Origin: Schmidtea polychroa
Lineage: Eukaryota
Assembly (NCBI GenBank): GCA_044892525.1
Contig: CM097885.1
Coordinates: 2,916,001-2,980,000 of the forward strand
Direction of reading: 5' to 3'
Length of the DNA stretch: 64,000 nucleotides
The position numbers were made by a program, and so were the translations under genes. Of this stretch, positions 17,155 through 63,334 are shown in pieces. The stretch's first letter is position 1. Each line of letters opens with the position of its first letter. The notes beneath the pieces were generated by a model. It was not told the origin of the DNA. It searched no databases and was given only the letters and a program-made list of their open reading frames with translations.

Positions 17155-17542
17155 CCAAATCTGTTTGCAAGTTATTAGGATGTCCATCTTTAAATAAAAT
17201 ATTAATTGCCTTTGACATTTCATCTGCAGATTTTGCCTTGACTGGTATTGCTCGTGCAAACCTGCTGAATACATTAATACATGTTAAAATATATTTATTC
17301 CCATTGTTAATTTTCGAATACGGTATCATCTCCATCAAATCCATTTGCCATAAATCGTCAATACCAAATGTTTTATAGGCTCTTGTTGGAAATCTTTTCC
17401 GCATTGGTTTGTTCAAACTGTACGCAAGCTGATCTGATAACCACTTCTGGGTTTCTTTTTTCGAATTCGGAACTCTTTTCTTTAATTTTGCCACTCCACC
17501 GAAACCGGCTTCGTCTTCTGGGTTCGTCCAAATCTTCTCCAT
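16475..17542 (-). CDS. Retroviral-like (rve) DDE integrase with C-terminal chromodomain; contains a 54-nt intron
   Basis: WQMDL, LQTDLG|KEFYN, VERFNRTL; chromodomain IQKIL...YYVKWHGY..PSWI. The poly-Ile stretch corresponds to a GT...AG intron at 17154-17101. Confidence 0.92.
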
Positions 17543-18137: not shown

Positions 18138-18155
18138 TATTATTCATAGAGGTTT

Positions 18156-18782: not shown

Positions 18783-18899
18783 TTTTAATATTTATTTAAA
18801 AATTAATTTTGTTTATATCGTAAAGAATAAATTGATTTCATTACTCTATAATATAATATATATATATAGATATTTGATTTTTATAAATATTCAGTAGAA

Positions 18900-19412: not shown

Positions 19413-19773
19413 ACATGAAGGTAACTGTTTTTATTTTAAATTTACTGATTTTTGTTTAGAAACTATACTAAAAATTTTGATTGATAAAATTGAAGATTTT
19501 TATCCGAATTTGAACAATTCCTTAATGTATTGTGCTCCAGAAGTTGTGTTTTACAAAATTTATGAAATAACTGGAATAAATGTAATAGATTTAATTCATA
19601 TGGATCATGCTACGATTACATGTTATACCGATGATGTTGAAAATTGTGATTTTTGTAAAAATAATATGCAGAATACTTGTGGGGATGATAGTTGTACATG
19701 TTTTGTAAATCTACAGAAACGAGAAATAATTCATGCATTACTTGTGGAATTGCGAAAAAATGTATTGTTGTAA
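19405..19773 (+). CDS. Cys-rich hypothetical protein overlapping the TBP-like stop codon
   Basis: In-frame ATG at 19405 overlaps the TBP-like 3' end; CDFC...CGDDSCTC. An apparent homologue follows the second TBP-like gene. Confidence 0.65.
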   Translation: MIEHEGNCFYFKFTDFCLETILKILIDKIEDFYPNLNNSLMYCAPEVVFYKIYEITGINVIDLIHMDHATITCYTDDVENCDFCKNNMQNTCGDDSCTCFVNLQKREIIHALLVELRKNVLL

Positions 19774-19975
19774 TAAAATATAATTATATTTGTTTTGTGA
19801 TAACCTTAATTAACCTATAATATTTCTTTGTGTACAATAAATCATTTCAGACTTTGTTATTTAGCATAAAATGAACTAGTTGATCACGTTTTGATCATGC
19901 CTGTCACTTGAAACTTGTTTACAATGAAATTAGTATAAAATATCTGGTTCAAATTATTAAATATTATAACTACAA

Positions 19976-20567
19976 ATGGATAATCAAATTACAGGTTTGT
20001 TGTCGTTTACACATATTCCATTTATTAGTTTTTTAATCTAGGAGTTTTGAAGAGAAAAAATGCAGATGCCGCTCAGGAATTCGGAAAACGGAAATTTAAA
20101 GAAGCGACATTATCCTTGGAAACCTTGGTCAATGTTCGAGTGGATACAAAAAAGCCAGTCGAATTCATGCAATACAAACTAAATTATTTGTATTGTCCAA
20201 TTTCCTATACATTTAAGGTAAGTTTCTATAAATTATTTTGGATTTTATTATTATTATTTATTGTTAGGAACCAGTAACTCTGGAAAAATGTTTCTACAAT
20301 GTGAGACTTTCCAAAATCAAGTTTCATGACAAGATGCTATTGGGACAATTATTTCAGAGGATCAATGAAAATATTGAATTTGATGATGAAGATATGTTCA
20401 TTAGAAACGATTTGGATATGATTCCCAATGGTGGTAAGATGAGCAAAATAACCTGCATGGTTACCATATTAATTCAAGGGTATAATGTAAGCAGAGACCG
20501 AATCAAACCAATTTGGAAAATTATAAAAGCCGAAGATAAGTTTGAAGAGGAACATTGTTCATGTTAA
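19976..20567 (+). CDS. Predicted 3-exon protein (~164 aa), possibly an OB-fold ssDNA-binding protein
   Basis: Exons 19976-19994, 20042-20217 and 20268-20567; GT-AG introns of 47 and 50 nt join the two track ORFs in frame. The function is a guess from the C-terminal beta-strand pattern. Confidence 0.65.
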
Positions 20568-22209: not shown

Positions 22210-22327
22210 AGACCTTAAAAAAAAAAATTTTTGACCTTGACCTTAAAAATTTGACCTTGACCTTAAAAAATTAGACCTTGACCTGTCCTGGATGTGACAT
22301 GTCCTGGAGGTGACACATCTTACTACT
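22210..22327 (-). repeat. Right terminus of Polinton A with repeated TGACCTTGACCT motifs
   Basis: Ends ACTACT. TGACCTTGACCT at 22232 and 22252, variant at 22273. Tandem GTCCTGGA..TGACA repeats. Confidence 0.85.
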
Positions 22328-22670
22328 CATAAAGACTCAAGACTCCACAGATTTTAGTATTCCAAGGTTGAACCTGTAAAGAATTAAAAGTGAAAGGCTT
22401 TAAAAGATAATCTTCAACTTCTTTTGTAGGTTTAATACCAAAAGAATCAAAGTATATAGATCTTTTGAATATAGAAACCCAATGAGAGCCTTGAGAATTA
22501 GAGTTTTGATAATTTATAATTATATTATCAGGGTTTGTCTTGGAGTCTAGTTCATCATTCATTAATATTTTTATTTTTAAATTTAAATAATTTGCATAAT
22601 CTTTTAAATCGAAATTTGTTTTTGCATTTATCCCAAATGTTTTTAAAAAATCTAAGATTGAAGGATTCAT
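22328..22670 (-). pseudogene. Adenain-like protease of Polinton B, truncated by Polinton A
   Basis: GSHWVS, YFDSFG, QVQPWNTKICG. The frame runs into the AGTAG terminus of Polinton A (TAT G|AG TAG). Confidence 0.88.
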
Positions 22671-22689
22671 TTTTTAGTTGTATATTTAT

Positions 22690-23517
22690 TACTTTGTATA
22701 TTTATTACTTTGTATATTTCCCGAATTTATCTTTTGAAATCATTCCCTCTTTTAATAAATTTTTTGAAATCTTTAAAATATCAGAATCTAAATTATTATG
22801 ACCTGCTTTTTTTAGCTGACAAGAGTTTTCTTAATTCAATAAAAAGATTTATAGGGTTAATCCCATCACCTTTAGTTTCTAGTTCTTTTAAATGTTTCTT
22901 TAAATCTTGAATATGTTTTGCTTTTTGACCAGCTTTTACTAATTCTATTAAATTTAAATATTTTTTAATTTCTTTAATATTATCGGTTGGATAACCACAA
23001 ATTAATCTATAAAAATCATCTGTAAATTCCCAGTCTAAAAATTCATTATTATAAACATTTAGAGAGTGGAGGCGTGATTGATTTTCTGCATTTGAATATA
23101 GGGTAAAGATTTCACTATTAATTGTTATTGTTTGAAATCCTTTGATTGTAAGATTAAATGCAGGTTTAATTGTAGGACTCAAGTTTGGATTAATTTTAGG
23201 ATTTAGTACAAGAGGTTTTGTTTTTAAAAGCATTTCTTCTTCATCAACACCAGAAATTCTTCTACGCTTTCTTTGATTCCTTTGATCTTCGAACCTCTGA
23301 TCTTCTATAGCTTTCACTTCTATAAATTCTATAGCTCTTCTTGGTTTGGGGGTTTTGGTTCTAGGGTTTTCAAGGCTTTAAGAGTTGGTTCTTGTTGTTG
23401 TAATATTTCTTCATTTAATACTATAGATTCAAGATTTTGGGTTAAATCTTTTTTATTATACTTGTCTTGTTCTTGTTGTATTTTTTTTAAAAGAGCTAAT
23501 CTTTCTTCATATACCAT
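22690..23517 (-). pseudogene. Fragmented hypothetical Polinton B protein
   Basis: ORFs 23329-23517 and 22796-23317 are in different frames. The C-terminus continues KKAGHNN after another frameshift. Confidence 0.45.
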
Positions 23518-23539
23518 TTTTTATACCATTTTATGGGAT

Positions 23540-24065
23540 GGGATTTACTCTCTCGAAGGGCTTCAAGTATAAACCTTTACCATTTTTAACTTTACAGGTG
23601 CAGCCATTCTTTAAAGATTTGAGGATTTTTTTTAAAAGCATCTTTCCCCTCAAATGATTCTGGAATTTGGTTTTTAAAAAAATCATTTAAACCTCTACCT
23701 TTATAAGGATCAAGGTATAGGCCTGCTCCTGTTACACCCTTTCCCTTTGCTTTTGCTTCACCCTTCATTTTATCAATTTCAGTTTGTAGTTTTTCTTTTT
23801 CTAGGTCTGTCTTTTGAGCTTCTTTAGCTTTTTGAACTGTGGTTGCAATTCCTCCGGCTATTCCAGCAGCACCTGATAAACCTGCAATAATTGCTGGTAT
23901 TAAAGCTGCTAGAGGAAGAAATCCGCCTTGCTTGCTTCCCTTTGCTTGCTCCTCTTTGATTTTCTCTTTTACATGTTTTCCAATAAAATATTTTTTACCA
24001 GAGATTACTACTGATTTATTCTTGTCTGAATTTATTAGTTCTTGCAAAGATTCTTCAGTTGTCAT
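23540..24065 (-). CDS. Core-like protein with KQGGFLPL hydrophobic segment and GxGLYL repeats (3' frameshift)
   Basis: KQGGFLPLAALIPAIIAGLSG...GAGLYLDPYKGRGL; a second GKGLYLKP motif appears in a shifted frame. Confidence 0.6.
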
Positions 24066-24111
24066 TTTATAATAAATAAAAAAGAGAATAAATAAAAAAA
24101 AGAGAATAAAA

Positions 24112-24915
24112 ATGGATGTTCGGAGACCTGCGGATACCTGGAAACCGATTTTAAATAGACACAAGAGTAAATTTAATAATAAGGTATTTCCTGATAATTT
24201 TAGATGTTTAATTGTTGGATCTTCTGGATGTGGAAAGAATGTTCTTCTTTTGAGAATGCTACTTGAAGATGGTTTCTTGGATTATAATAATTTTATCTTT
24301 TATTCTACAACCATAAATCAACCAGAATTACAACTTTTGAAATGTGGATTTGAAAATAAATTAACTAAAAAAGCTATAATTGATATTTTTAAAAATCAAC
24401 TCGAATGTCCTGAAGAAGTTTTTCATCCTTGTGATATGGTTGATTGGTATAAGGAAAAGATTTTAGAATCAGATATTAGTAATAAAAATGATTACATTTA
24501 TCAGGGTGAAGGTATTAAAGTTTTATTCTCTAATAAACCTGAAGATGTTTTACATTGTGATTTACTTCCTAGGAATAAAAAGAATTTAATTATATTTGAT
24601 GATGTTGTTAATATGAAAAACCAAGAGATTCAAAAGAGTTACTTTACTCGAGGACATCATAATAATTGTAATGTTATTTATATATCTCAAACTTATTATG
24701 CTTTAGATAAAAACTCTATAAGAAATAATTCTAATTGTTTTATATTTTTTAAATTAGATAAGCGTGATAAGAATATGATTTATAATGATTTATTTTCAAA
24801 TGTTGAACCCGATAAGAACATGTTTGACATGTTTGTTGATAATCATTGGAAAGAAAAATATAATTATATTTATCTTGATAGGGAAGAAGCTAAAATGTGG
24901 AAAAGTCTATTCTAA
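24112..24915 (+). CDS. A32-like packaging ATPase, Polinton B (motifs partly degenerate)
   Basis: GSSGCGKN (GKT expected), LIIFDD, FTRGHHNN (RGRH expected), ISQTY, SIRNN. Confidence 0.88.
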   Translation: MDVRRPADTWKPILNRHKSKFNNKVFPDNFRCLIVGSSGCGKNVLLLRMLLEDGFLDYNNFIFYSTTINQPELQLLKCGFENKLTKKAIIDIFKNQLECPEEVFHPCDMVDWYKEKILESDISNKNDYIYQGEGIKVLFSNKPEDVLHCDLLPRNKKNLIIFDDVVNMKNQEIQKSYFTRGHHNNCNVIYISQTYYALDKNSIRNNSNCFIFFKLDKRDKNMIYNDLFSNVEPDKNMFDMFVDNHWKEKYNYIYLDREEAKMWKSLF

Positions 24916-24938
24916 GGGGTCTATTCTAGGGGTCTATT

Positions 24939-25748
24939 CTAGAAATCTGTTTTCTGTAGTTCCTTATTATAAAATCTACCTAATATTTTTTCATTATTTA
25001 AATCGATGATGCTATATGTTATTGGAATTGTATAATGTATTTTATTTATAATAAAAATTTCATTTGTCCATTTTGCTGTGAATCCTTTTTCAAATTTATT
25101 TTTATATTTAAATATTCTTACACGTTGACCAATTTTAAACTTTGGTTTTTCAATAACATCATTTTCAACATTTACCACTCTAACTGTTTCAGGATTTAAG
25201 GAAGCATTTAAAGGTGTTGATTTTATAGAACTATGTACATCATTATTATATTCATTTACAATCTTTTGTAACAATTCATTGTTCCATTTTTGTTTTCCAA
25301 TAGCAGTAAAATATTTCCACATTTTATTTTTTAATGTTCTATTTAATCTTTCAACTACGACTGCTTTTCCTTCGTTTTCTGTTGAATATAATTTAATATC
25401 ATTTTCATTTGAAAACTTGTAAAAAACTTTGTTATAAAATTCTGTTCCTTTATCACACCATAAATATTTTGGAATTCTTTGATATTCTTCAAATATATTT
25501 TCAAATGCTTCTGTAATAGAATATCCTGTTTCATTTTCTAAACATCTTGCAAAAGCAAATCTTGTATATAAATCTATTACAGTTAAAATTATTTTATATT
25601 TTTCAGGGTCTGATGATTTGGACATAAAGACTAAATCAGCAGACCATGTTTGATCTTTTTCATGTACTTGAACTTGCAAATATTTTTTATTTTTTCTAAA
25701 TTCATGGTGCAATTCGTTGGCATATTTTATTTGTGATTCTGTTGGTTG
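24939..25748 (-). CDS. rve DDE integrase of Polinton B
   Basis: ANELHHEFRK, WSADL, WCDKGTEFYN, VERLNRTLK, KFKIGQRVRI, GRFYNKELQ. No own ATG; in frame with the upstream PLA2 domain. Confidence 0.9.
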   Translation of the reverse strand, partial: QPTESQIKYANELHHEFRKNKKYLQVQVHEKDQTWSADLVFMSKSSDPEKYKIILTVIDLYTRFAFARCLENETGYSITEAFENIFEEYQRIPKYLWCDKGTEFYNKVFYKFSNENDIKLYSTENEGKAVVVERLNRTLKNKMWKYFTAIGKQKWNNELLQKIVNEYNNDVHSSIKSTPLNASLNPETVRVVNVENDVIEKPKFKIGQRVRIFKYKNKFEKGFTAKWTNEIFIINKIHYTIPITYSIIDLNNEKILGRFYNKELQKTDF

Positions 25749-26357
25749 TTAATTTGTAGAATTAGTCTTGGATATATTCTCGAGGGATCTTTCAACGTCT
25801 GCTTGTTCAATAATCTTTTTATTAGCAACATCTTTTGCTATCCTTGGTAGACCTGCTCCTATGAAGATCTTACCTTTCATTGCTAATTTAACTAGAGCTC
25901 TTTGAATCTTTTCTTGAGTTGATGGATTTTCTATATTATTTAAATCATGTATTAAATTAACATCTGCAACATGTCTATCTCTAAGATTTGTTGAGTTGTA
26001 AGCAATATCATGTTTTAAAGCTGCTTGATCAATTCTATTTATTGGTTCTTGTCCTTATTTAGGATTATTATTTTCATCTAGACGAATATCTAATCTAGTT
26101 CCTGGTCCAGTATAATTTTGCGAGAATAAATGTCTTTCACCTGGATACTTTTCAGAGGTGAAAGGTTTTATTATTGTAGATGTAAGATTTGAAGATTGAA
26201 GATCTCCACCGGTCTGTTGTTGTGCTTCTTTCTCTATTTGGGGTTGGTGTTGTTGTGTTTCTTTCTCTGTATGCTTTTTAGTTTTTAAGTGTTTAGCTTT
26301 GTGATATTTTGTTACTTCACAGTTGCACACTTGGCATTGATAATAATGAGAGGTCAT
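25749..26357 (-). pseudogene. Zn-finger plus parvovirus-type phospholipase A2 domain with an internal TAA
   Basis: CQVC...H..H-type finger; NYTGPGT Ca-binding loop. Past TAA 26057-26055 the frame reads GQEPINRIDQAALKHDIAY...DRHVAD (catalytic HD). Confidence 0.85.
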
Positions 26358-26556
26358 TTATTTGATCATATTTTGTGTTTACTTTTCTTAGTTCTTGTTT
26401 TAAGATTCTCATCTTTACTAATCTTCTATCGGCAATCTCAACTGCTCTACGATATTGTTCTCGATAGTATTCATTTGCAGCTGTTAATTCTTGAATATAT
26501 TTCACTGGATTCTGCATTCTTTCTAGGCGATTATTTTTTGCTGTTTCAGTATCCAT
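26317..26556 (-). CDS. Small coiled-coil hypothetical protein
   Basis: 79-aa ATG ORF packed between the capsid and PLA2 genes on the same strand. Confidence 0.4.
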   Translation of the reverse strand: MDTETAKNNRLERMQNPVKYIQELTAANEYYREQYRRAVEIADRRLVKMRILKQELRKVNTKYDQINDLSLLSMPSVQL

Positions 26557-26609
26557 TTTTAGGTATTAATTTTTAGGGTGTGTTGGGTTTATGGGTGATG
26601 GGTTAGGGA

Positions 26610-27902
26610 TTATAGATCTCCTCTAACATTTTCAACAATTGAAATCTTTCCACCTGATAGTTTCATTTCTATTTTCTTTTCTTCTAGGATTAATACATGT
26701 ACTTTGGCTTTAAAATTTGAATCCTTTGTTATGTGAAGTGTAATGTCTACATTATTTATAGCTAGTCGATCATCTTGATCTGAAACATTTATACAAAATA
26801 TAGAATATAAATTTTTGAAATCTTCTAGGCTTAATTGTGGTTCAACTTTAAAATCTTGACATGTTTCAATATAATTTAGATATGGGAATATGTTTTCATT
26901 TTTTTCAATATTAAATTCCATTCTATTTATTGGATAATAAGAACTATTTAATTGAATTTGGATTGTTTTTAAATTATCATCTCCAATCTTTTGTATAAAT
27001 AGGTTGTTATTTTTTTGAAAGGAAGAATCTGTTTCTTTGAATCCAATTAAAATATATCTTGGTCTGTATGCTAAATTTGCAACCTTTATAGAATAAGTTG
27101 AACCCTCTGTCATGGAAAATTCACTACAGATTCTATTTAAATAATTTACATTTATAGACTTGTTGGAATTTAATCTTTCAAGGAGTTTAATTTCAGCAAG
27201 AGGGTTTAATGTCCATTCGGGTACATGTAATTCAAGTGTTGATAATTTTAGTTTAGCTTTTGTATCTGCAGCTCCAAAAAATAATCTTTTATCATCTTCT
27301 ACTCTGTTACAAATTAATTCTATAAAAACATTATGGAGTACACGATTATAATTTTGAAGGAATCCAAATAAATGTTTTAATTCAAAATAACCTTCAAATT
27401 TTTTAGACTTGTAGAATTCAAGTCTTTTACAATAACCATAATTCGCATCTATTCCTTCTTTATCTAAATCTCCTTTATTATTATCTGGAATCCAACCTGA
27501 TAATTCTCCATATTCATTTCTATAATCATAACCAGTTAAAATAAAATTTAACATTGTAGAATATATACCTGGATGTAATATGGTTTCAATTTCTGATGAT
27601 CCTAGTTTTAATCTCATGTTGTTGAATAAATTTGGAAAGAAATTATTTTCAAGGGTTTTATTTTTGTTGACTTCAATTTCTAATTCAATTTTGTAATATA
27701 ATTTTGCATTACAAATGTCTATAGGATTTGAAGTTTGAAGGGATTGAAAGACTATATCACCTGCACGATTTAAGTTTGCAATAGATCCTGAAGTTGGAGA
27801 TATTTTAAGTACATCATTTTTCTTGATATCATGAGTAAATTCTTTATTATTATCGAGATTAAATTTATTTTTTTCTTGAATTTTAAGATTTATATTATTC
27901 AT
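26610..27902 (-). CDS. Major capsid protein (double jelly-roll), Polinton B
   Basis: 430 aa; NLNRAGDIVF, NNFFPNLF..MRLKLGSSEIE...HPG..STM, PRYILIGF, LNSSYYP, SIFCINVS. Unlike the Polinton A capsid protein. Confidence 0.8.
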   Translation of the reverse strand: MNNINLKIQEKNKFNLDNNKEFTHDIKKNDVLKISPTSGSIANLNRAGDIVFQSLQTSNPIDICNAKLYYKIELEIEVNKNKTLENNFFPNLFNNMRLKLGSSEIETILHPGIYSTMLNFILTGYDYRNEYGELSGWIPDNNKGDLDKEGIDANYGYCKRLEFYKSKKFEGYFELKHLFGFLQNYNRVLHNVFIELICNRVEDDKRLFFGAADTKAKLKLSTLELHVPEWTLNPLAEIKLLERLNSNKSINVNYLNRICSEFSMTEGSTYSIKVANLAYRPRYILIGFKETDSSFQKNNNLFIQKIGDDNLKTIQIQLNSSYYPINRMEFNIEKNENIFPYLNYIETCQDFKVEPQLSLEDFKNLYSIFCINVSDQDDRLAINNVDITLHITKDSNFKAKVHVLILEEKKIEMKLSGGKISIVENVRGDL

Positions 27903-39321: not shown

Positions 39322-39559
39322 ATATTAATGAAGGCGTTTCATTATTGGTTGAGGAGATATTTTGAATTAATTTCACTGTGAATTTGCAATTTTCATTATC
39401 TAATTTCACGGTAAAAATTACTTCGAGGTGAATAGGCAAATTCTAAAATGGTAATGAAAATAAATGTTATGCACCCCAGCATATTCATGGAAGGTGAATA
39501 ACCCTTGCACTTGCCTCATCAAAATAGCAAAATAAATCAAAACACCGAACAACAGGACT

Positions 39560-41540
39560 AAAAGAATTATATTGATTTACTGAAATAATTGTTTTAATTT
39601 CCAGGCTGGAGCGTATCAAATATCATTGCAATTTAGCATGGAAATCTCCACATCAAATGCACTGCCAGGCCATTTATTCATTGCCAAGCACATCAATTGT
39701 ACCCGATTGGTGATAATTTATCAATAAGCAGCCAATCAGATGCCATTCAATGCGATTGGTGATAATTTATCAATAAGCAGCCAATCAGATGCCATTCAAT
39801 GCGATTGGCTGTGCAATGAAGTGACCAATGACGAAATGAAAGTCCATCTCTATGAGAACAATTATATCCATAGCAAATTGCTGATTTTATCAGATCAGTA
39901 ATTTATGCAATGAGATGCAAGCAATGAGAGATGAGAATGTGAAATTGGGTAAGGAAATTACCGAATTGAAATGTGAAATGAGACAATTCAAACAAAAAGC
40001 TGATTATGCCCAATTAAATGATTGAAATATTTAATTGATATTGTGAGTAAATGAGAAAATGTGCGATGTGGAAATGAAAGTGATGGGCAACAGAGGGGAA
40101 ATAGAGGAGTTAGTTGAGGATATTGTAGCATTATAGAATGAGAATCGCTCATCCAGAACCGAGATGGAGACAAATATTGAATCTATCAATCAAGTTTGAT
40201 TGTTGATTTGATGCTTAAACGCAAGGCAAATCAGACAACAAATTGAAATGATTGAAACAAAATACCAAATGCGAATTGATGAATTGAAACCGAAGTGCAA
40301 ACGGCGTATGCAACAAGAGAATGCAAAGTTGATCTATTAAAATGTTTGATTTTTTATTCAAATATTTGATCGCTTTTTCATTCTCTTGTGCCAGCCGCTG
40401 CTTATAATTATCAATTGTCTGATTGACCTCATTCAATTCCTCCATTTCTCCCTTGTTGCAATCCCTTTCCATTCCATATTTACGTTAGAACAAATTCTCA
40501 TACAATCACAAATATCAATCAATAATTTAATCAATCAATTAAATATTATCAAATTATTGTTTGAATTGAGTTATTTCTCCTTTCAATTCGATAATTCCTT
40601 TCTCAATTTCATATTTGCATTACCCACTGATTCTATCTAATTGCAGAAATTATTGATATGGTCAATCAACAATTTGCGATGGAAAGAATTATTCTCATTC
40701 AGATGGCTTTCATTTTGTCCTTCACTACTTCATTTCAAATCCAATTGCATTGAATGGGCTGCTTTATGGCTATTCTCATTAACACTTGATTAATCCAACT
40801 TCTCAAATACCTAAGTTGATCGCATGATCTTCACAATCATTTTGCACATTCTGGAAATTATCAAATTCAAATTTATTTCCTTATCGTTTTATCTAAAATT
40901 AACAAAATTATTAATTAAATGATAAATAATTATCAATATAAAAATAAATCAATTAAATATTCCATTTTACATTTTGCAATTATCAAAATATTTCAACTTT
41001 TGACAACTTTCATAAATGATAATTATTTCCTGCTACGTTTACAATTACAACATTTTATATTTTTTGGTGTAGATAAACAAATGTTTCTAAATTTATAATT
41101 ATTCAAAATCTAAAACAATTTCCAAGTATATTTGCATTAAAATTATATAAATTTTAATATTTTGCATAATATTAAATGCACGAATAAACTTGACAAAAAG
41201 AAACGTTTTTTAAAAATGCAATAAATCCGGAAATTAGTAATATTTGAAAAGGCAAATACAGTATTAAATTGTTTCCAAATCTAAAATAATAATAGAAATC
41301 TATATATGAAAATAGACGTAAAAATTGTGAAAAAATTAAAAACTTAAAATTTGAATTATTCACTTACTGACAATTACTTAAAATCAAATTAACATTTATG
41401 TTCGGCCAAAATCAAGAAGAACCCTCGTTATTTACCTATAGCGAAAACGCAACACTAGTAAAAGGTAAAAATATAAACCTGATAAAATACATTAGAAGTG
41501 TAAAATGATGCTAGAATTAGAAATGGAACAACGAACTATT
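39560..41540. pseudogene. TRAF-like pseudogene fragments, copy 1 of a ~2-kb duplication
   Basis: A plus-strand fragment (~39700-40330) resembles the Zn-finger/coiled-coil exons of the 55479 gene, followed by a minus-strand paralogous fragment (~40330-40900). Near-identical to ~43160-45130. Confidence 0.75.
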
Positions 41541-42300
41541 TTCAATTTTTGACCAAGATAATACGGAGAAAAATCGCCAGATCTAGGATCAAGAAAGGAC
41601 ACCTATTGGTAATGGATTGATATATGACAGGGGTGCCCATAAGGTCGATCGCGATCTACCGGTAGATCGCGAAGGATTTTTTAGTAGATCTTCATAAAAA
41701 AAATATTTTTTATATAAATTTAGAATTTATATAAAATTTCTGTTTTATGCTTAAATTTTTTGCCAATTTTCATGTTCTGTGTTCCATTTCTATGGTAATA
41801 CTAAATAACATTTTTTAATTTTGATTTCACCATTTTCAAAATGTTATTTAGTTTAATTTAGTTTAATTTAATTTTGTTTATTTAGTTTAAATATTATGTA
41901 AGTATTAAAAAAGTAGATCGCATACACATTTTGGATGTGAATGTAGCTCTCCTAGAAAAATTAGTGGGCACCCCTGATATATGAGCTTAATGTGCCTATC
42001 CGAAATTGGTGTAAAAATATTTTAATACAATATCATGATGGAAAGTTTGGTGGACACATATCAGCCAAGAAAGCAGAAACAAGAAATTAAACAAAAATTT
42101 TATTGGTCGAAAGATGTAGATGACTTAAAAAGCGGATAACAGATTGTCTCACCTGCGCAACTCACAAAGTCATAGGAAGCAAAATGAAAGCACTACTAAA
42201 ACAATACCAATACCACCGACCTACAACGATGATTGCAATGGAAGTGATAGAATCACTAATAATGAAAATATTTATATCTTAAGTCAGAGCAGTAAACATA
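41400..42300 (+). mobile_element. Gypsy-like LTR retrotransposon pol relic (integrase HHCC region)
   Basis: Broken frames read ILIQYHDGKFGGHISAKK...KQKFYWS...CLTCATHK; interrupted by the 41628 MITE. Confidence 0.65.
41628..41976. mobile_element. hAT-type MITE
   Basis: CAGGGGTGCCCA / TGGGCACCCCTG; perfect 8-bp TSD ATATATGA. Confidence 0.92.
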
Positions 42301-43159
42301 AAAATTTCTAACTAAATTCAAATGGCAACCAACCGAATCCAACAGAAATTAGAGGACCGGTCAAAAGTTTACACACTCATGAGAAAATAGCAAACGAAAT
42401 TACGAAAACACGAAAAGCGACTCAATTATATCAAGTCTAACAAGCTAATAATCGAGACAAGACATCGAATGTGGATGCAGAATTTGTAACCCAGCTAAAA
42501 AGAAAATTCAACAATATGTCCAGACTGTGGCGAAACTAATAAAATCACCCTCGAGAATACCCAACCAAACTATGCAACGAATCGCGAAATATTAAATGAA
42601 ATGTCTGAGAGAGTAATATGAATGGAAAGGACTAAGAAATAGCAAATTCAAAAAATAAAATGTGAACTATGCCTGATTTCAATAATCACAAAGAGTCATC
42701 CAAAAGTATGCGAAATAAGAACAAGCAAATGTAAATTCTGTGGAAAGAATTCAAATCAACCCAAAAAACAAATAATCATGAAGCTAAAAAGCCTCTGGAA
42801 TAAAGATTCCCGCAAAGCTGCTAATAGCCTGTTGAATCTATTCGACTGCAAAATACAGCTAGCAAGAGGAAACTCAGAAATATGTCAGAGAAAGCAACGC
42901 GGAACCTAACATACAACAATAGTAGAAGCAACCAAAACAACGGCAATGGCAATAACGGATTTTATGGATAATATAAAATATTAATCAAGGAGACTCAAGA
43001 GATTGGGAGAACAAATGATACATCCGACATAATTACAACAAAGGAACGGATTAGAAAATGAGTTGAATTCCCAAGCGCAAGGAAATGTAAATAGCATGAA
43101 CGATAACAGTATAACACCCAGGGGAAGCAAAACCCAAAACAAAAAAATAAATCAAAACA

Positions 43160-45130
43160 CAGAACTAAAAAATATATTGATTTACTGAAATAATTGTTTT
43201 CATTTCCAGGCTGGAGCGTATCAAATATCATTGCAATTTAGCATGGAAATCTTCACATCAATTGCAAACAAACACATTTATTCATTGCCAAACACATCAA
43301 TTGCACCCGATTGGTTATAATTTATAATTAAGCAGCCAATCAGATGCCCATTCAATGCTATTGGATGCGAAATGAATGAAGTGACCAGTGACGAGATGAA
43401 AGTCCATCTCTATGAGAACAATGATTGCCATAGCAAATTGCTGATTTTATCAGATCGATAATTTACGCAATGAGATAGAATAAATAAAGAATGAAAATAT
43501 GAAATTGGGTAAGGAAATTACCGAATTGAAATGTGAAATGAGACAATTCAAACAAAAAGCTGATTATGCCCAATTAAATGATTGAAATATTTAATTGATA
43601 TTGTGAGTAAATGAGAAAATGTGCGATATGGAAATGAAAGTGATGGGCAACAGAGGGGAAATAGAGGAGTTAGTTGAGGATATTGTAGCATTATAGAATG
43701 AGAATCGCTCATCCAGAACCGAGATGGAGACAAATATTGAATCTATCAATCAAGTTTGATTGTTGATTTGATGCTTAAACGCAAAGCAAATCAGACAACA
43801 AATTGAAATGATTGAAACAAAATACCAAATGCGAATTGATGAATTGAAACTGAAGTGCAAACGGCGTATGCAACAAGAGAATGCAAAGTTGATCTATTAA
43901 AATGTTTGATTTTTAATTCAAATATTTGATCGCTTTTTCATTCTCTTGTGCCAGCCGCTGCTTATAATTATCAATTGTTGGATTGACCTCATTCAATTCC
44001 TCCATTTCTCCCTTGTTGCAATCTCTTTCCATTCCATATTTACGTTAGAACAATTCTCATACAATCACAAATATCAATCAATAATTTAATCAATCAATTA
44101 AATATTATCAAATTATTGTTTGAATTGAGTTATTTCTCCTTTCAATTCGATAATTCCTTTCTCAATTTCATATTTGCATTACCCACTGATTCTATCTAAT
44201 TGCAGAAATTATTGATATGGTCAATCAACAATTTGCGATGGTAAGCATTATTCTCATTAAGATGGCTTTCATTTCGTCCTTCACAACTTCATTTCAAATC
44301 CAATTGCATTGAATGGGCTGCTTGATGGCTATTCTCATTACCACTTGATTAATCCATCTTCTCAAATACCTAACTTGATCGCATGATCTTCACAATCATT
44401 TTGCACATTCTGGAAATTATCAAATTCAACTTTGTTTTCCTTATCGTTTTATCTAAAATTATCAAAATTATTGATTAAATGATAAATAATTATCAATATA
44501 AAAATAAATCAATTAAATATTTCATTTTATATTTTACATTTTGCAATTATATTTCAAAAATATTTCAACGTTTGACAACATTCAAAATTCCTAAATATTT
44601 ACATTAATAATGTCCGGTAAAATTATAATTTAAAGTTCATAAATTAGCTTTTTGTTGTAGATAAACAAATGTTTTTAAATTATAATTATTCAAAATCAAA
44701 AATAATTTCAAAGTATATTTGCATCAAAATGATTTAAATTTTGATATTTTGCATAATATTAAATGCACAAATAAACTTGACAAAAAGAAACGTTTTAAAA
44801 GATTCAAGAAATGCGGAAATTAGTAAAATTTGAAAGAGGCAAATACAGTAAAAAATTGTTTCCAAATTTAATATAATAATAGAAATTTATATATGAAAAT
44901 AAGAAGTAAAAACTGAGTAAAAATCAACAACTTAGAATTAGAATTATTTGCTTATTGACAATCACTTAAAATCAAATTAAAATTTATATTCGGCCAAAAT
45001 CAAGAAGAACCCTCGTTATTTACCTATAGCGATAACGCAACACTAGAAAAGGGTAAAAATATTAACTGTATAAAATACATAAGAAGTGTAAAATGATGCT
45101 ACGAAGAGATTTGAAATGGAACCACGAACT
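43160..45130. pseudogene. TRAF-like pseudogene fragments, copy 2 of the ~2-kb duplication
   Basis: Direct repeat of ~39560-41540; track ORFs 39988 and 43548 differ by one residue. Confidence 0.75.
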
Positions 45131-55478: not shown

Positions 55479-56898
55479 ATGTTTGCAAGCGTATGGGAAA
55501 TGATGAAGAGGAATAAATTTGAATTTGATAGTGAAATCAGCAATGAATTGATATGCAGAATTTGCAAATGTTTAATGATAAAGGCTTGCAATGCTCCTTG
55601 CGGTTGTCGCTTTTGTTCTGATTGCATTGAGCATTATTTGGATGGAAACGATAAATTCTGTCCAGGAGCAGCAAAACATTGCGGAAAGAAAATGATAAAT
55701 TTTGCAAATGATATTGTAGTAGACTATAATGCTAACAGTCGAATTTCAGGAATGATAGTGAAATGCCCTATGCAGAATTGTCAATTCAAAGATGAATTAG
55801 AGGTGATGGAGAGCCACATGAGGACATGCACCAAGCAGCCAATAAAATGCCCGTTCAATAGGATTGGATGCGAAATGAATGATGTAGAGAAGGACGAAAT
55901 GAGAGTCCATCTCAATGAGAACAATGAAGGTCATAGCAAATTAATGATTGATCAGATCAGCAATTTGTGCAATGAGATGAAGGCAATGAGAGAGGAGAAT
56001 GCCAAATTGCGTGTGGAAATTACCAATATTAATGTAAAATTTTATTTGCAATTAATTTATTGATATTTCTGATTGTAGGAGAAACTGGGCAATATTGAAA
56101 GGAAAGAGGCGGAGAACAGAGCAGAAATAGAAGAATTGAATGAGGAAATGGTGGCATTGAAGAATGAGAATCGCTCATTGCGAATGGAGATGGAGACAAA
56201 TATTGGATCAATCAATCAAGTTTGATTATTGATTTGATTTGTTATTGATTTGTTATTGATGCAATCAGATCAGACAGCAAATTGAGGTGATTGAATCAAA
56301 ATGTCAACAGCAAACTGATGAGATGAAAGAGAAATGCGAGCAGCGGCTGCAACGGGAGAATGAAAAGGTGATTTATTGATTTATTGAAATATTTGAATTT
56401 GAGATTCAGCTGCAGCTTGAAATGGCGAAATGCGCCAATGAAATTCAGCAGGTTGAAACAAAATTAGGAAGTGAAAAATATATAAATTATGGATTTTTTG
56501 AATGGCAAATCGATAAATTTTCACAACAAAATAGAAGTGAATGGATTTACAGCGAGGCATTTTATTCCGGGCCAATTGGTTACAAAATGTGCTTGTGGGT
56601 GTGGATTAGGGGTAATTGGGTTGAGGTTGGTTTCTGTGTGATGCGTGGGGCAAATGATGAGCAATTGGACTGGCCGTTCAATCAATCGGTGGCAATCGAT
56701 GTGATCGATCCAGCAAATGGCAGCATTTATATGAGTGAGTCAATGAAATATTCAGATCGCACTCGTCATGCCGGATGGGGGAAACCGTCAAATGACAGAA
56801 ATGATCCGATTTGCATTTATAATTATGATAGCTCAATCTATAAATTAGCAGCCAAAAGTGATAAATTGCTGCTCAGGTGCAGAATTGAAAAATTATGA
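55479..56898 (+). CDS. TNF receptor-associated factor (TRAF)-family protein, 4 exons, ~427 aa
   Basis: Exons 55479-56033, 56079-56219, 56269-56367 and 56410-56898 (phase-0 GT-AG). RING-like CRIC...CGCRFCSDC...CP, TRAF Zn fingers, coiled coil, MATH domain (EWQI, YSEAFYSGPIGYKMCL, MRGANDEQLDWPF). Confidence 0.9.
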
Positions 56899-58539
56899 AA
56901 AATTAGAAAAACATTTCAATAAAAAATTGATTTATTTTGGCTTTTGATCTGATTTATTATTTGCCTTATTATTATTATTATTGATTTATTATATGAGCTA
57001 ATTATTGTGATAATCATTGTCATTCTCCCCCCCCCCCGCGCGCCTTCCATCCGATATTATCATTATATTTATTATAATTAAATTAATAAGAGTTGTGGAG
57101 AAATTATTGCTGTATTGAATGGCAGTAAAATGCACCTAAATGCAATACTAAAATTGCCTTATATCAAATTGATTAATGCCTTAACATTTCACCTCCGCCA
57201 GCTATTTGTGAGGCATTTCAACGCAATCCGCAACAACAATACTGATAAAATGTTCCAATATTGCTTTCACATCAGTTTGGGTAAGTTTACCAAAATGAGA
57301 GCTGTCGATGCGATGAGGGCAATCAGTGCTTTCTAAACTCTATCAAATTCTGTTACGCATTCTTTTAATGAGATTTTCTTAACAGCTAATGAAATGATTT
57401 AATATTAAATAATCTAACATTTCATAAATTTATTCACTTTTTCATTAGCTAAATGTTCAAATATAATATAATTAAATCAAAAATGATTTCATGTAAATTA
57501 ATATTTAAATTCACAATTGAGAATCAGAGACACTGGTGTAATAGAATTTTACATTTTTTAAATATAATTTCGAACCAAAACAGAACCTCAATTACGTTTT
57601 ATTTTTACTTCTGTTTTGGCGTTCTCCACTTCCTGGAACTAAATATATTAAAAAAACTTTATAGCGATAATTTGCTATAGTAAAAATTGACAAAATTAAA
57701 AAATCGAATTAGAAATTTTGATAACTAAGAAAACAGAAAGTTATATAGAAGATTAATCTTAAGATACTCAAGAATAAAGTTCCGAAAAAGATAAAAAAGA
57801 AAATTATAAAACCTAAACAATTCGAGATTAAAGTTCTGAAAAATATTAAAAGGAATATTATCAAACATTAACAATTCAAGAATAAAATCCCGAAAAAGAT
57901 AAAAAAGAAAATTATAAAGACTTGTCCAATTTCTTTGAGCCGAGGTTTCAGGTCGATTATTTTATATATATTATTTCTTTAATAAAAATTGTTTTCGTTT
58001 ACAACTGTTATTGTTAATTTTATTATACATTTTATTTGGGGTGTCATAAGCACGCAGATACACACGCACCCCGATTGTCCCGCCACAAGTTTTAACGGAG
58101 ACTCTTTCGGGCTCATCAAATTTCTTAAATAATCTATACAAATTAGACACAAGCTAAGAGTAAACATTTGTTGGGCTGAAACCGAGAACTGAGAGTTTGT
58201 TTTAATCGATCGAAAAATACCTAACACAAAAACCGCAAAGTTGGAAAATTTATGACCAAGGTTTAATTTAAAATAAATGAAATAAATTACATCACACATT
58301 AAGAACCAATAAACCCCGTATAATAGAATAAGAGATAAATAAATTTAACAAAAAATTCAACACTTAAAAATTTAAATAGAAAAATAATAAAATATAAAAT
58401 AGAATTAGTTGAAAATTATTTAAACAATATAAAAATTAAATCGTCAAAAATACTAAAATTAGTTAGCATTATATAAATTGTAAAGTTTATAGAATTATTA
58501 TAGAATTAATTATTATAGAATATTATTTTTGTTTAAAAT

Positions 58540-58660
58540 ATTATTATTTTCAAGGTCATATTATTATTTTTCAAAATATTATTATTTTCAAGGTCGTATT
58601 ATTATTTTTCAAAATATTATTATTTTCAAGGTCATATTATTATTTTCAAGGTCATATTAT
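58540..58660 (+). repeat. Tandem TTATTTTCAAGGTC(A/G)TATTA motifs
   Basis: Four copies; the same core motif occurs in the Polinton termini. Confidence 0.8.
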
Positions 58661-59205
58661 TTTTGTTGATTATATGATAATATTTATATTTTTGTTTTAA
58701 TTATCGATTACTTAATAATTTAATTTTGTTTAAATCGTTGATTATATGATAATATTTATATTTTTGTTTTAATTATCGATTACTTAATAATTTAATTTTG
58801 TTTAAATCGTTGATTATATGATAATATTTATATTTTTGTTTTAATTATCGATTACTTAATAATTTAATTTTGTTTAAATCGTTAATTATATAATAATATG
58901 TTTATTTTTTTTTAATTATCGATTACTTAATAATTTAATATTGTTTAAATCGTTAATTATATAATAATATTTTTTTTTTGTTTTAATTATTAATTATGTA
59001 ATAATTAAATTTTGTTTAAATTGTTGATTATATGATAATATTTTTATTTTTGTTTTAATTATCGATTACTTAATAATTTAATATTGTTTAAATCGTTATT
59101 TATATAATAATATTTTTTTGTTTTAATTATCAATTACGTAATAATTTAATTTTGTTTAAATCGTTGATTATATTTTTTTTTGGTTTAATTATCGATTACG
59201 TAATA
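58660..59205 (+). repeat. ~72-bp AT-rich tandem repeat, ~7 copies
   Basis: Unit TTTTGTTTTAATTATCGATTACTTAATAATTTAATTTTGTTTAAATCGTTGATTATATGATAATATTTATAT; period 58681 to 58753. Confidence 0.9.
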
Positions 59206-59315
59206 ATTTAATTTATCATTATTATTGGGAAAGAACGCCCGCGCGGAAGATTACAATTATTATTATCATTTTCAAATTTCTTATTATTTATTTCAAAGTA
59301 TATTATTATTATTAA

Positions 59316-59381
<66 letters not shown>

Positions 59382-59428
59382 TATTATTTCAAATATAAAA
59401 AAGATAAAACACAATAAAAATACATTTA

Positions 59429-59843
59429 TTAATAACCCAAATCAACAATCCGGGAGTAGTGAAACCTTCTCAGAGTTTTCACTAACTCCCATTCGACATA
59501 TCGCCGATATCGATCGGCGCAACATGAGCATCCGATGATGCACTGGTACTCTGGCTCTATTTGTTTGATGGTTCTGTTTATCTTTATATTCCACAGAAAC
59601 TGGTGAAATACCTCCATTATTCTAATTTGAGTTGTGTAGAAAATGAGGTCCGGAATTATTTCTGCTTCTCTATCCTTGATAATTTCAATAATTTGAGGAT
59701 AATAATATTTTATCCTTTTTATCATAACTTCTAAATATTTTTCTAAAATAATAAATAGTAAATAATGTGAAAATAAAAATTTTAAATTTACCGGAATCGT
59801 CGATATCTTTCATGAGGGTTGCAGAGCTTGGTAATTTGTACAT
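59429..59843 (-). CDS. Cys-containing hypothetical protein, apparent homologue of 19405-19773 (2 exons)
   Basis: A 61-nt GT-AG intron (59791-59731) joins MYKLPSSATLMKDIDDS|EVMIKRIKYYYPQI; similar layout ending CIIGCSCC...ELVKTLRR. Confidence 0.55.
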
Positions 59844-59917
59844 GGTGTTGAAAAAATGAATTCTAAACAAAAAACCGTTTGTTTAAATCAATCAATAACC
59901 AATTAGAAATTAACCAA

Positions 59918-60340
59918 TTAGAAATCGACCAATGAAATTATCTCATTTCGAACATTGTCAACAAATTCTCTATACTCCAAATTTCTCAACCCCAGCATGA
60001 CAACCTTTCCACTAGCAAACACGTTGACACATATAGGGTTATATTTTAATAGTCTTAGTGCCGGAAACAATTCCGGTTCAAACATACAATCACATTTTTT
60101 CGACATGTTATATAGATTGATACTATGTCCCATATCCATAGTAACGGTAATTGATTGGATTTTAATATTATTTATTCGATATTGTAATTTATTGATATCC
60201 AAAGGTTTCTTACATCCCATGATTCTGCATTTACCAGTCTTGAAAAATATTATCGGATATTTCCCGCTTCTATCGATAATTTGCTGTGGTTTCCCTGGTG
60301 GGAACCTCATATTCGATACATCAAAATTTCCTCGATAATC
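59918..60340 (-). CDS. Second TBP-like gene (5' end apparently truncated) in a Polinton relic
   Basis: YRG...FPPGKPQQ..D.SGKY.IIFFKTGKCRIMGCKKP...IQSITV...INL...FEPELFPALRL.KYNPICVNVFASGKVVMLG, collinear with 18900-19412. Confidence 0.85.
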   Translation of the reverse strand, partial: DYRGNFDVSNMRFPPGKPQQIIDRSGKYPIIFFKTGKCRIMGCKKPLDINKLQYRINNIKIQSITVTMDMGHSINLYNMSKKCDCMFEPELFPALRLLKYNPICVNVFASGKVVMLGLRNLEYREFVDNVRNEIISLVDF

Positions 60341-63334
60341 CGATTTATTTTTTGTCGGCGCAGGAGAAGCAGGGACGAAGAGTTTTTCCAGTATTGGTTG
60401 TAGTAGTCATCTAAAGATTAAAGAAATTTACACATGCCTTACAAACTTTTGTCAATTGATAATCACACGTTCACGACGCGAGTTTTGTCACCTCCCTCAT
60501 CCATAAACTCAAAAAAAGTTCGCCTTTGCATACTAACGACCATCCATTAATCTATTCAGGCCTCAAACATTCAAAATTAATTCACACAATCATTATAATT
60601 TTATGAGGGGAAAACGGGAATTCTACAAAAACAATTCATTTATTCTAACTTTGACTTATACATTTATTCTACAATTATTTATTCACCATGGTGGTCACTA
60701 TTAATCCTCCTGGTTATTATTATACTTTAATAATCACGTTTCTCTCATGACGCTTTTACTTTGCCAGAATATGTACGAGCTGTATTATAGAAAAGAAATA
60801 CCGTGTGGTAGGAGTCCTTTTACGTTAGACGGGTCTATTAGAGTTGTGATTAAATCAGAAAAACATTTTTGGTTTGTTTCAAATCGGAAATTGTGATTTT
60901 AATTTATTTAAATTTTTCGCTGAAAAAGTTGTCATAGCGACGCGGAGTGGTAAACGATTGGGTGGAAATGTTGTCACCTATTGCCTAGTACATTGTGATG
61001 CATGCCTACTCTGTCTGTCATCAAGTTGTACTTTCTCACCCCTAGTGGTTTCGCTGTCTGCTAATGACGAAATCGAACTGCTTAATTATGCAACCTCGAT
61101 ATTTCCTTGCTAATGTTATGTAATGGTGACGTCAGCTTTTCCACTACAATCTACCTAAGTGGTGAAGCATGCATGTCATTATACTTAATGAAAACAAATA
61201 TAGCATCTCGGTCAGAGTTTTCAGACACGTCAAAATTTTACTTGCTGATCTAGAAGACTTACGAATTCTAACGGCGTAAATTATCCATGATTTTAAATGG
61301 ATGAGATTAATTTTTGTTTCAGCTTCTTCTAAGTCAGGTCGATTTCGGATGAAGATTTTCAGTTCATTCGCCCAACGGCCTTCACTCACCGTCTACTCGC
61401 CGGACAAATTATCGAAACCTCCCCGGACAGCTGCTGTGTTCGGACTTAAGTCACAAGGAAAAACAAATCGGTATCTACTCGATGCTGGAAAAAGATAAGT
61501 CGCTCGCAGATTACAACAACCGCCCTCATTAATTATCGAGAATCTTATCAAGCTGTCTAAATCGGCTCACTGGCACTGGTAGCGATTTCCCTCATTTCGA
61601 CCGTAAGTAACTGATAATTTCTACCGTTTTAGTTACTTTCTGTTTAGAGAACCAAAGCTTATCAGCAGTATGCAAGTGACTGATTTAACCTAAAAGTACA
61701 TCGATACTGGGTTTCGTCGCTAACGTGCTGGCAATCAAGCTCAGGCAATAACTCATGAACTTATTATGCCGTGGAAAACAGTTGGGTTTGATCGCAAACG
61801 GTGATTGTCAAGATTCCTCCTCGGTTATTCCGATCGTCAAGCTGATTTTCCTAGAAGATTTTCCTCGATTTATGCGAAGTTTCGTTAGACTTAAATACTT
61901 ATACCGATCTGATCTGGATTTAACCTCAGTTGGAAATATAACCTTCCTATACGAATATCAGGAATCTCTATGTAACTGGACGAAATGATAGGACTATTCT
62001 CCTAACGATCGCGCTGAGTGAAGGAAAATTTGTTTCTTCGCAACTGGAATTTTTCATCTACCGAGTCTCATCACCCCTCATGACACACCCAAGAAGGCAT
62101 TCATTTCTGCCGCCATTCTTGCACCGTCATGAGGGACCAATCAACTCCTTTACATTCAAAAGATAGACATTCGCTTATAATCACATTAATGATAGAATAA
62201 ATGATGAATAAAATAAACAAATCAAAATACCCGGCGACCATATCATCTGGGTTCCAAGAATGATGCTTCTCCATTTTTTTCCGATCATATATTCATTTTC
62301 AGCATTAGCAAATATCTCTCTTATCATTATCACCTTCTCCGGTTCCAATATATTCGCAATATCTCCTAGATGCATGTCATAAAAACTCCTCGTGGCTACT
62401 TCTCCATTTGGCATCATCCTTGAAATCACCAGAGGATACCGTCGTCGGCACCATGAAGAAAGGCAGTTTTTAGTTTTAAATAAATTTATTAAATGAAATT
62501 ATTCTTGTTATTTACAAAAAGTTTATTAAAATCAATCATCGATATTCATTAAATTTAATCATACAAAACTAATCCACAAATACTTAACATACTTTGAGAT
62601 TTGGAAAAGAAACTGGAGCAAATTGATTAACGCGCAGGTTGTCTTGAGTAAGATTACTAAACCTCTTCCTAAATCGATTGGGTCGTTTTCTAAAATTGGT
62701 CCTTTGTAGTGGTTCGTAAGTCTCGTTCTGTAGAGTATCTTGATGAGTAGGTCCTGAATGTCGTCTGTAGAGGTTTTGGTTAAAGTGGTACTCTACTGAT
62801 TTTTCGCGTTTCTTATATACTATTTTTCGTCCAATCAGGACTTATTTAGGTTGTAATTTTTAATATTTATTATTATTTTATGTTTTTATTATAATATATT
62901 AGCTTTTAATAACTTAACTTATTTCTTATTATTATTTTATTTATTTTTCCTATTTTTCTTATTTTTCTCCTATTTTTCCTGCTGGTTCACTGCTACTTTA
63001 TCATAATACAATTTTTGTTTTAATTAAACTTCAAGATATTTTTATTTTTTATTTATTGCTTTAATTTCTAGTTTATTTTTTCTCACTTTTTTGCTTATTC
63101 TATTTCTACTTTGTTTATTGTGCTTTAACTCATTTCTCTTATGTCCTATTTCTAATTCTTAAGGGCTTTATTTATTTATCGCTTATTCTTATTTCTTTTT
63201 TATGGATATTTTATTGTTTCCTTATTTATTATTGAGGTTTGATGGTAATTTATTTTTTATTATACTTCGTTATTTTTTCGAGGTTCGTTTCCCGATTTTC
63301 CCCAGTTTCCCTCCACTTCACAATTTGGCCCAAC

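Follow-up and report, generated by a model that had tools for sequence, protein, structure and literature searches.

Related systems

The elements analysed here resemble the Polintons or Mavericks, described also as adintoviruses and MELD viruses (Starrett et al., 2021, PMC8502044), and share with the gene sets given in parts of that paper an integrase, an A32-like packaging ATPase, an adenain-like protease, putative DNA polymerase and capsid genes and Bcl-2-like cargo. MELD viruses have already been given a TBP label (section 3.4 and the Fig. 5 legend of PMC8502044; preprint 10.1101/697771); in those parts of the paper TBP stands as a figure label only, and no family, promoter box, neighbour gene or SSB is described. 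Cellular and archaeal TBPs (PF00352) have in common with the Polinton proteins the two-repeat saddle, the acidic pair that contacts TFIIB and three Phe positions. The Polinton proteins differ in their length of about 145–150 aa, in a linker of mostly 17–21 residues compared with about 32, in the absence of helix H2 and in a variable first intercalating Phe position. Among large dsDNA viruses, the TBPs of giant viruses have diverged TFIIB contacts, according to the relevant passages of PMC7221094, whereas the Polinton TBPs keep them. A more distant parallel may be drawn with the late pre-initiation complex of beta- and gamma-herpesviruses, which, as outlined in parts of PMC12529657, combines a virus-made TBP-fold protein, a variant TATA box on late genes and host Pol II. 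KSHV ORF24 is a multi-domain protein that needs several viral partners (same source), whereas the Polinton TBP is minimal, and the likeness would be one of function.

Our search of the open literature, with figures, supplements, subscription papers and repeat-database entries outside its scope, found no study devoted to the Polinton TBP, its neighbour or a Polinton SSB, and a term search of the accessible part of bioRxiv 10.64898/2026.06.19.733378 did not find TATA, TBP or SSB. New here are the fragment status of a second TBP-like locus, the allele mosaic of the neighbour gene and the assignment of a probable SSB.

Two Polinton families that recombine

The window is a stretch of 64,000 nucleotides from the AT-rich, 781 Mb genome of Schmidtea polychroa. 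A sequence-only reading had noticed two TBP-like genes in it, each followed by a small Cys-rich gene, and took the pair for a transcription module selected in more than one Polinton family, with the partner possibly replacing lost helix H2 contacts. The first TBP-like gene (18900–19412, plus strand, 170 aa; PF00352 E = 2.2e-17) lies in a Polinton of family A. The second, of family B (59918–60339, minus strand; PF00352 E = 1.6e-15), is truncated at its 5′ end. Both pass the Pfam cut-off for TBP, and they are identical at 75 of 143 residues (52%), so the second gene is the diverged TBP-like gene it was said to be, with the quoted motifs present. The proposed Ka/Ks comparison of the two gave a dN/dS of about 0.16 with dS near saturation, which points to purifying selection.

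The A32-like packaging ATPase (18156–18782, minus strand) is transcribed divergently from the TBP gene and matches PF04665 above the cut-off in both families. The integrases of both families match rve at E ~1.5e-5, below the curated cut-off, and carry a chromodomain. An adenain-like protease was matched in the family-B locus L062 (PF00770, E = 2e-6), where the DNA is 86% identical to the family-A region of the window. The reading frame at 7142–9964 (minus strand) matches a PHROG DNA polymerase (E = 2.4e-19) and not PF03175, and its homologue in L062 is 72% identical in DNA. Searches of Pfam and the PDB with the frames at 13881–15104 and 15462–16529 gave no match; a weak capsid search result, with a PF21738 protein, had 19% identity across 256 aa (E = 0.083). 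The names capsid, penton and PZ are our assumptions, taken from size and position rather than from a library match. In a family-B copy followed across 20 kb, the order of the genes is that of family A, with the ATPase, core protein, integrase, putative penton, putative capsid, protease and polymerase homologue.

The identity of the two families varies along this order. At the protein level, the ATPase, core protein, PZ-like protein and putative capsid are 93–97% identical; the putative penton reaches 57%, TBP 55% and the neighbour 20%. At the DNA level, most compared copies are 91–100% identical over the gene for the core protein and over the 3′ part of the ATPase gene (97–100% at 18100–18399), 81–91% at 18400–18799 in the 5′ part of the ATPase gene, and 59–74% over the TBP gene. 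The dS between the ATPases is 0.045 in the 3′ part and 0.97 in the 5′ part, a pattern that places a crossover between the families within the ATPase gene, near 18300–18400. A quick tree of 87 TBPs unites A and B in one clade of 12 (SH-aLRT 97); it has no outgroup and leaves out rows shorter than 110 aa, exact duplicates and locus L143. Families A and B are thus recombining sisters with the same gene order, and the pair of TBP and neighbour was inherited once rather than selected twice.

Several further observations were made on these elements. The putative penton gene (15462–16529) is 57% identical to its counterpart at 1727–2794 of L062 between flanking genes that are 93–95% identical, which suggests a second swapped cassette, and locus L071 carries two penton-like genes in tandem. 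In the family-B locus L059 (724–1386), an internal deletion joins the start of the ATPase in frame to the core-protein gene. The integrase frame (16475–17542, minus strand) contains an in-frame ATT microsatellite that reads as a long Ile run; its length varies between copies, and it is probably an intron. Two polymerase-sized frames, 1329–5300 (plus strand) and 7139–9964 (minus strand), are 72% alike in DNA and each has an endonuclease-VII-like domain; the former has no PHROG polymerase match and the latter no Pfam polymerase match. Between Polinton genes, positions 11228–11910 hold an imperfect palindrome of about 570 nt that is 88% self-complementary. A second, different Polinton occupies 22323–27902, with a Pfam double-jelly-roll capsid (E = 8.5e-28), an ATPase and a core protein X; within the window, no TBP, neighbour or SSB match belongs to it. 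Finally, 55479–56898 is a host cluster of TRAF-like genes (RING, zf-TRAF and MATH) in several copies, with similar stretches near 39500–45100; these genes speak for an animal genome.

The second locus is a dead fragment

Positions 59250–60339 (minus strand) are an isolated 1.09 kb piece of family B that comprises the TBP-like gene and its neighbour and ends in an ATT microsatellite. We fetched the 30 best loci for each of TBP-A and TBP-B, a choice biased towards intact copies. Each of the 29 other family-B loci aligns to the window from 60339 down to 59250–59343 at 82–98% identity and runs on into the ATPase gene on one side and an SSB-like gene on the other, which the window copy does not. 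The window copy also lacks the start codon and first five codons of TBP, present in 29 of 29 other fetched copies; intact copies encode a TBP of 145 aa. With its start missing and both flanks cut off, the locus is a dead fragment of a high-copy family-B Polinton/Maverick, lying between two unrelated repeats. The second pair is consequently no independent recurrence, as it had first been taken to be, but part of a sister family that shares the gene order. Each genome search scored 150 of roughly 4,100 candidates; TBP-A and TBP-B each have at least 150 near-identical copies, and among the matches listed 150 of 150 for TBP-B are about 99% identical.

The repeats next to the fragment had been described as shared with Polinton subtermini. 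They are indeed 76–84% similar to window positions 5950–6099 over 85–140 nt. However, the stretch at 58520–59215 is an arm of a separate repeat family with subrepeats of 72 nt and about 19 nt, found elsewhere as inverted pairs 8–33 kb apart, and does not belong to family B: behind the neighbour, 29 of 30 family-B loci have the third gene and not these repeats. On the other side, 60349–61200 is the start of another, unrelated interspersed repeat, most other genome matches of which begin at query position 10.

Fold of the TBP-like proteins

We compared the element TBPs with cellular TBP. The structure model of TBP-A (pLDDT 95.2) has the TBP fold, with Foldseek matches to TBP at E ~1e-9; the Pfam match, the model and the structure matches together identify the two-repeat saddle of the family. 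The first repeat of the model has no helix H2, as no helix lies between the strands at 45–51 and 65–77. Outside this genome, the short-TBP family comprises 107 proteins among 157 candidates. The linker from the last strand of repeat 1 to repeat 2 is 17–21 residues long in 71 of the 79 parsed TBPs (17 of 96 were unparsed), compared with about 32 residues, read off the alignment, in a cellular TBP.

The acidic pair that contacts TFIIB (passages of PMC7221094), here in a C-terminal EPE loop, is kept, with E or D at its first position and E at its second in 96 of 96 TBPs. Three Phe positions are kept in 95–96 of 96, and the first intercalating Phe position varies; the mapping of the acidic pair and the Phe positions onto cellular residues is our own reading of the alignment. 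Compared with a canonical TBP, which has H2 and four intercalating Phe residues, the element TBP lacks H2 and conserves three of the four Phe positions, and is a divergent TBP-fold protein. Contacts of TFIIA, TAF1, Mot1 and NC2 have been placed on TBP's N-terminal lobe, again in part of PMC7221094. The loss of H2 is general in the short-TBP family; the neighbour gene, undetected at 83 outside loci, apparently is not.

The neighbour gene and its homologues

The small similar gene behind the second TBP is borne out; it lies on the same strand with the quoted segments present, and its similarity to the first is weak but above chance. In family B, the frame is restored by a predicted 49-nt phase-1 intron, and the gene most likely starts at 59843, which makes it longer than the reading frame first noted. 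It encodes about 121 aa at 59429–59843 (minus strand), with a predicted exon 1 at 59843–59792, a GT–AG intron at 59791–59743 and exon 2 at 59742–59429; at least 150 genome copies are among the matches listed. In family A, the gene (19405–19773, plus strand) overlaps the TBP stop and has a predicted intron of 39 nt at 19421–19459. Both predicted introns are GT–AG and sit at one shared phase-1 position, following a short first exon. The description as Cys-rich holds modestly: there are four Cys in B and seven in exon 2 of A, of which a lone Cys and a CxC pair align.

That the two neighbours are unrelated or non-coding frames paired by chance would agree with an identity of only about 20% and with pairwise phmmer E-values of 0.008–1.2. 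The alignments proposed by the sequence-only reading nevertheless came out above chance in both shuffle tests, with a BLASTP match of 13/52 (E = 1e-4). The pairwise local score was reached by 7 of 5000 shuffles, and the score of a profile of five B-type neighbours against neighbour A (16.7 bits) by 0 of 5000, which largely refutes a chance pairing. A bridging homologue, P0109, drawn from 1.84 billion representative proteins, is 35% identical to neighbour A and 26% to B, and does not have the intron-coded stretch of the neighbours. Because of the profile shuffles, the shared intron place and phase and this bridging protein, the neighbours are distant homologues, and with a dN/dS well below 1 a chance pairing is scarcely credible.

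Relatives outside the genome are few. Among 1.84 and 5.8 billion proteins we found only P0109 and a 44-aa fragment, and neither searches of Pfam, PHROGs and PDB sequences nor a single-sequence search of the 5.8 billion proteins with the neighbour gave a useful match. P0109 likewise had no useful match in viral contigs, or in the Atlas by features and structure (best TM 0.41–0.47). A resemblance to E1A/E7-like "Oncoid" proteins, seen by eye, was dropped, as no LxCxE is present.

Linkage, selection and allele turnover

The synteny check that had been proposed confirms a tight linkage: the pair occurs in all 30 fetched A loci and all 30 fetched B loci. In a sample of 40 copies taken from the neighbour side (20 B and 20 of a second class, B′), a B-type TBP lies upstream in 39, in one case as a partial gene, and one copy has none. 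This linkage is what a dedicated TBP cofactor would show, docking on the H2-less N-terminal lobe as in the beta/gamma-herpesvirus late complex, and the overlap of the TBP stop with the neighbour start in family A, the absence of AATAAA between the TBP stop and the neighbour stop in family B and the purifying selection on the neighbour agree with such a role. A precedent is KSHV ORF24, which needs ORF34 for promoter binding (part of PMC12529657).

However, the neighbour sequence does not track the TBP sequence, as that of a cofactor in a module should. In many copies, neighbour alleles only 52–56% identical stand beside TBPs that are 97–100% identical, so that practically the same TBP tolerates very different neighbours. 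Locus L050 has a TBP identical to that of family B and a third gene that is 97% identical, and its neighbour is only 52–54% identical; in DNA, identity is 60–75% over the neighbour gene and 94–100% on both sides. The B′ class makes up 128 of 150 among the matches listed, and a B-type TBP that is 97–99% identical precedes 19 of the 20 sampled B′ copies. Between B and B′ neighbours silent sites are saturated and pN is about 0.26. The dN/dS is 0.04–0.20 between closer alleles, and 0.04–0.07 between neighbour B and its closer alleles.

From this pattern, the neighbour is a real, fast-changing gene, the old alleles of which have apparently been exchanged between copies by recombination, with a turnover independent of TBP. 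Our preferred explanation is that it is an exchangeable accessory protein. Two findings weigh against this: selection on the neighbour is purifying and not positive, and an A-type TBP with a B-type neighbour was seen in 0 of the 40 sampled B and B′ copies. The idea of a selected module in more than one Polinton family thus keeps one half, since both genes are under purifying selection and the pair is maintained in both families, and loses the other, since the pair was inherited once.

A, B and B′ are discrete and old classes of alleles, each with more than 100 copies, and are swapped as a patch. This would also suit a neighbour that works between elements, as a repressor or exclusion determinant with allele specificity groups, or in replication as a helper of the SSB or polymerase; its position between TBP and SSB would fit as well. 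With no match to a DNA-binding or replication family in Pfam, PHROGs or the PDB, we regard such functions as very doubtful.

TBP loci outside this genome

Genomic context was available from 83 outside loci, comprising the best 80 of 181 metagenome loci, one viral locus and two from a genome collection; at least one Polinton core gene is present at 36 of the 80. The neighbour profile detected no neighbour at the 83 loci, the best hit (E = 0.035) lying inside an integrase. At least 600 nt downstream of TBP is available at 51 of the 80, and many of the loci come from a few related data sets, which limits the claim that the neighbour is absent. A fast-evolving gene of 110 aa can also escape detection at a TBP identity of 35–50%. 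The nine closest outside TBPs (P0002–P0023), which share the clade supported at 97 with A and B, are known as proteins without DNA context, and the pair may be conserved across this clade. Searching the genome for further TBP families with P0002 and P0004 gave, among the matches listed, only 60–65% identity, including known A and B copies; 150 of about 4,100 candidates were scored each, and rare families could escape.

Two expectations of the sequence-only reading find no support here. TBP-like copies were to keep the neighbour, which is so in families A and B, though it is undetected in the 83 outside loci. The partner was suggested as a replacement for the lost H2 contacts; with the H2-less linker family-wide and the neighbour undetected outside, losing H2 does not seem to require this neighbour.

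A second family of small helical proteins, sharing a YxAPE motif, bears on the cofactor question. Ten genes of this family lie just downstream of TBP on the same strand, with up to three tandem paralogues, in five outside loci (L084, 2585–4067; L086, 2004–3011; L087, 2936–4338; L083, 2057–2269; L064, 881–1024), three of which fall in the sister group on the quick tree; three of the proteins were searched against Pfam and had no match. A gene directly 3′ of TBP in these relatives would favour a cofactor, if the two families were one. The comparison with the neighbours is not significant, however, at 15 and 44 of 1000 shuffles for P0109 and A and 105–494 of 1000 for the B types, with a motif picked by eye; with the same by-eye motif, hhalign gives P = 31% over 17 columns against the A-type neighbour. 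Moreover, 46 of the 51 loci with at least 600 nt downstream have neither neighbour nor YxAPE family, yet the H2-less linker is family-wide. A cofactor role is conceivable for this clade; as an explanation of the neighbour we consider it rather unlikely.

Other candidates from the outside loci did not hold. Compared with both neighbours, 40 profiles of neighbour clusters gave none that was convincing, the best (1 of 200 shuffles) being an antisense two-member cluster, and a CGCC-starting family (c11) was rejected as a neighbour relative at an hhalign P of about 1%. More distant clades (many of L089–L140; L190, 5443–5961) have TBP flanked by a DEDD-exonuclease-like family, often doubled, a label given by eye with no Pfam match, and also by PLA2-like, KilA-N and LRR genes. 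L190 and L191 carry Polinton-type TBP genes on contigs filed in bacterial MAGs and are probably mis-binned eukaryotic or viral DNA.

Gene 3, a probable ssDNA-binding protein

The third gene follows the neighbour at 19976–20567 (plus strand) in family A, with predicted introns at 19995–20041 and 20218–20267, and at 7522–7932 of locus L061 in family B; the last family-A exon matches the gene-3 profile at E = 1.4e-12. Searches of the Atlas, Pfam, PHROGs and PDB sequences gave no usable match. We compared the family-B structure model (pLDDT 89.8) with 48,161 chains. The top four belong to one fold group: African swine fever virus (ASFV) CP312R (Z 7.4, rmsd 4.1, 125 aligned residues), a DUF2815 phage protein (Z 7.2, rmsd 2.8, 101 aligned), T7 gp2.5 (Z 7.0, rmsd 3.3, 106 aligned) and the Enc34 SSB (Z 6.8, rmsd 3.3, 104 aligned); the next row has Z 5.5. 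The model also matches many giant-virus proteins at E < 1e-3. Gene 3 thus shares the fold of the T7 gp2.5, Enc34 and CP312R SSBs over 101–125 residues and differs from them in sequence, with 4–10% identity. We assign it a gp2.5-like OB fold with moderate confidence, the Z-scores being middling (below 8), and it is probably an ssDNA-binding protein.

Gene 3 is found in 21 of the 80 outside loci and in 20 of the 26 closest. With two further families that hhalign aligns to it at P = 71–72%, compared with less than 3% for unrelated pairs, the total comes to 39 of 80. Another family, c10, looks OB-like by eye, but its hhalign P to gene 3 is 0.7% and it was counted apart. At the 21 outside loci that extend 1 kb or more to both sides, gene-3 families are present in 12, an unproven look-alike in seven and neither in two. 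The side and orientation of gene 3 relative to TBP vary among the outside loci. Gene 3 is a steadier companion of TBP across relatives than the small neighbour, and the SSB may be a general Polinton gene.

Upstream of gene 3 in family A, the 200 nt at 19776–19975 contain three p53-like half-sites (RRRCWWGYYY, with up to one mismatch allowed), where 0.27 are expected and 0 of 200 shuffles reach as many; family B has one in 250 nt, which is not significant. Such sites could link the SSB gene to DNA damage. Beyond the SSB gene, family-B locus L061 holds a Bcl-2-like frame (6427–6738, plus strand; Pfam E = 0.062) and a divergent frame (5911–6321, minus strand) with a hydrophobic N-terminus and a coiled-coil-like tail.

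Promoter motifs and a proposed mechanism

A TATAAAC box lies upstream of the family-A ATPase gene (18811–18817, minus strand) and is a candidate late-promoter element; further boxes precede other morphogenesis genes (18164, 17681, 15564, 15519 and 15140). In the outside loci, all 22 ATPase genes and all 7 capsid-like genes have ATAAAC in the 80 nt upstream (shuffle means 1.2 and 0.9), compared with only 3 of 61 TBP genes (shuffle mean 3.4). No TATAAAC was found upstream of TBP, the neighbour or the SSB gene in families A and B, and the second Polinton (22323–27902) has the box before one of seven frames. Three CCAAT boxes precede the B and B′ neighbours (p ≤ 0.005) and one precedes neighbour A (p = 0.3), where the absent enrichment counts against our preferred explanation. 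TBP's N-terminal lobe recognises the TATA box's 3′ half, the part in which TATAAAC differs from the host consensus. As a correlation, the motif pattern fits an early and a late block of genes and suggests that the element TBP may bind a TATA-type element; the conserved EPE loop suggests that it may contact TFIIB.

In intact copies, TBP would open an early block, transcribed by host factors, that consists of TBP, the neighbour and the OB-fold SSB and, in family B, the Bcl-2-like gene. The element TBP would then bind the TATAAAC box and, through its C-terminal EPE loop, recruit host TFIIB and Pol II, which would switch on the capsid and packaging genes; its cut-down N-terminal lobe might escape host TBP regulators. 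The SSB would serve strand-displacement replication. The neighbour would be an early accessory protein confined to this lineage; it would probably be helical and bind zinc, and would be expressed from a CCAAT-type promoter of its own where the TBP gene ends. It would most likely act on a host target and would not be a fixed structural replacement for H2. On balance, we consider this picture, with an early TBP block, TBP-driven late genes and an exchangeable accessory protein, to be probable.

A more far-reaching version, quite improbable in our estimate, has animal Polintons run a minimal self-encoded late switch. In it, the H2-less TBP would recognise TATAAAC jointly with a small helical partner that binds zinc, the neighbour and the YxAPE proteins would form a single fast-evolving family, and late transcription would be tied to replication through the adjacent gp2.5-like SSB. 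If true, interchangeable partner alleles would adapt one and the same TBP to different host cofactors or states of the cell.

For the accessory-protein picture that we prefer, the neighbour matters less than first proposed, as a lineage-restricted accessory gene. The patch-like exchange of its alleles nevertheless shows that these integrated copies recombine one gene at a time, in the manner of viruses. The probable SSB would fill a gap in the Polinton replication kit. Finally, for the timing of Polinton gene expression, the family-wide TBP, the matching box before packaging and capsid-like genes and the probable SSB provide a small, testable parts list for an early-to-late switch.
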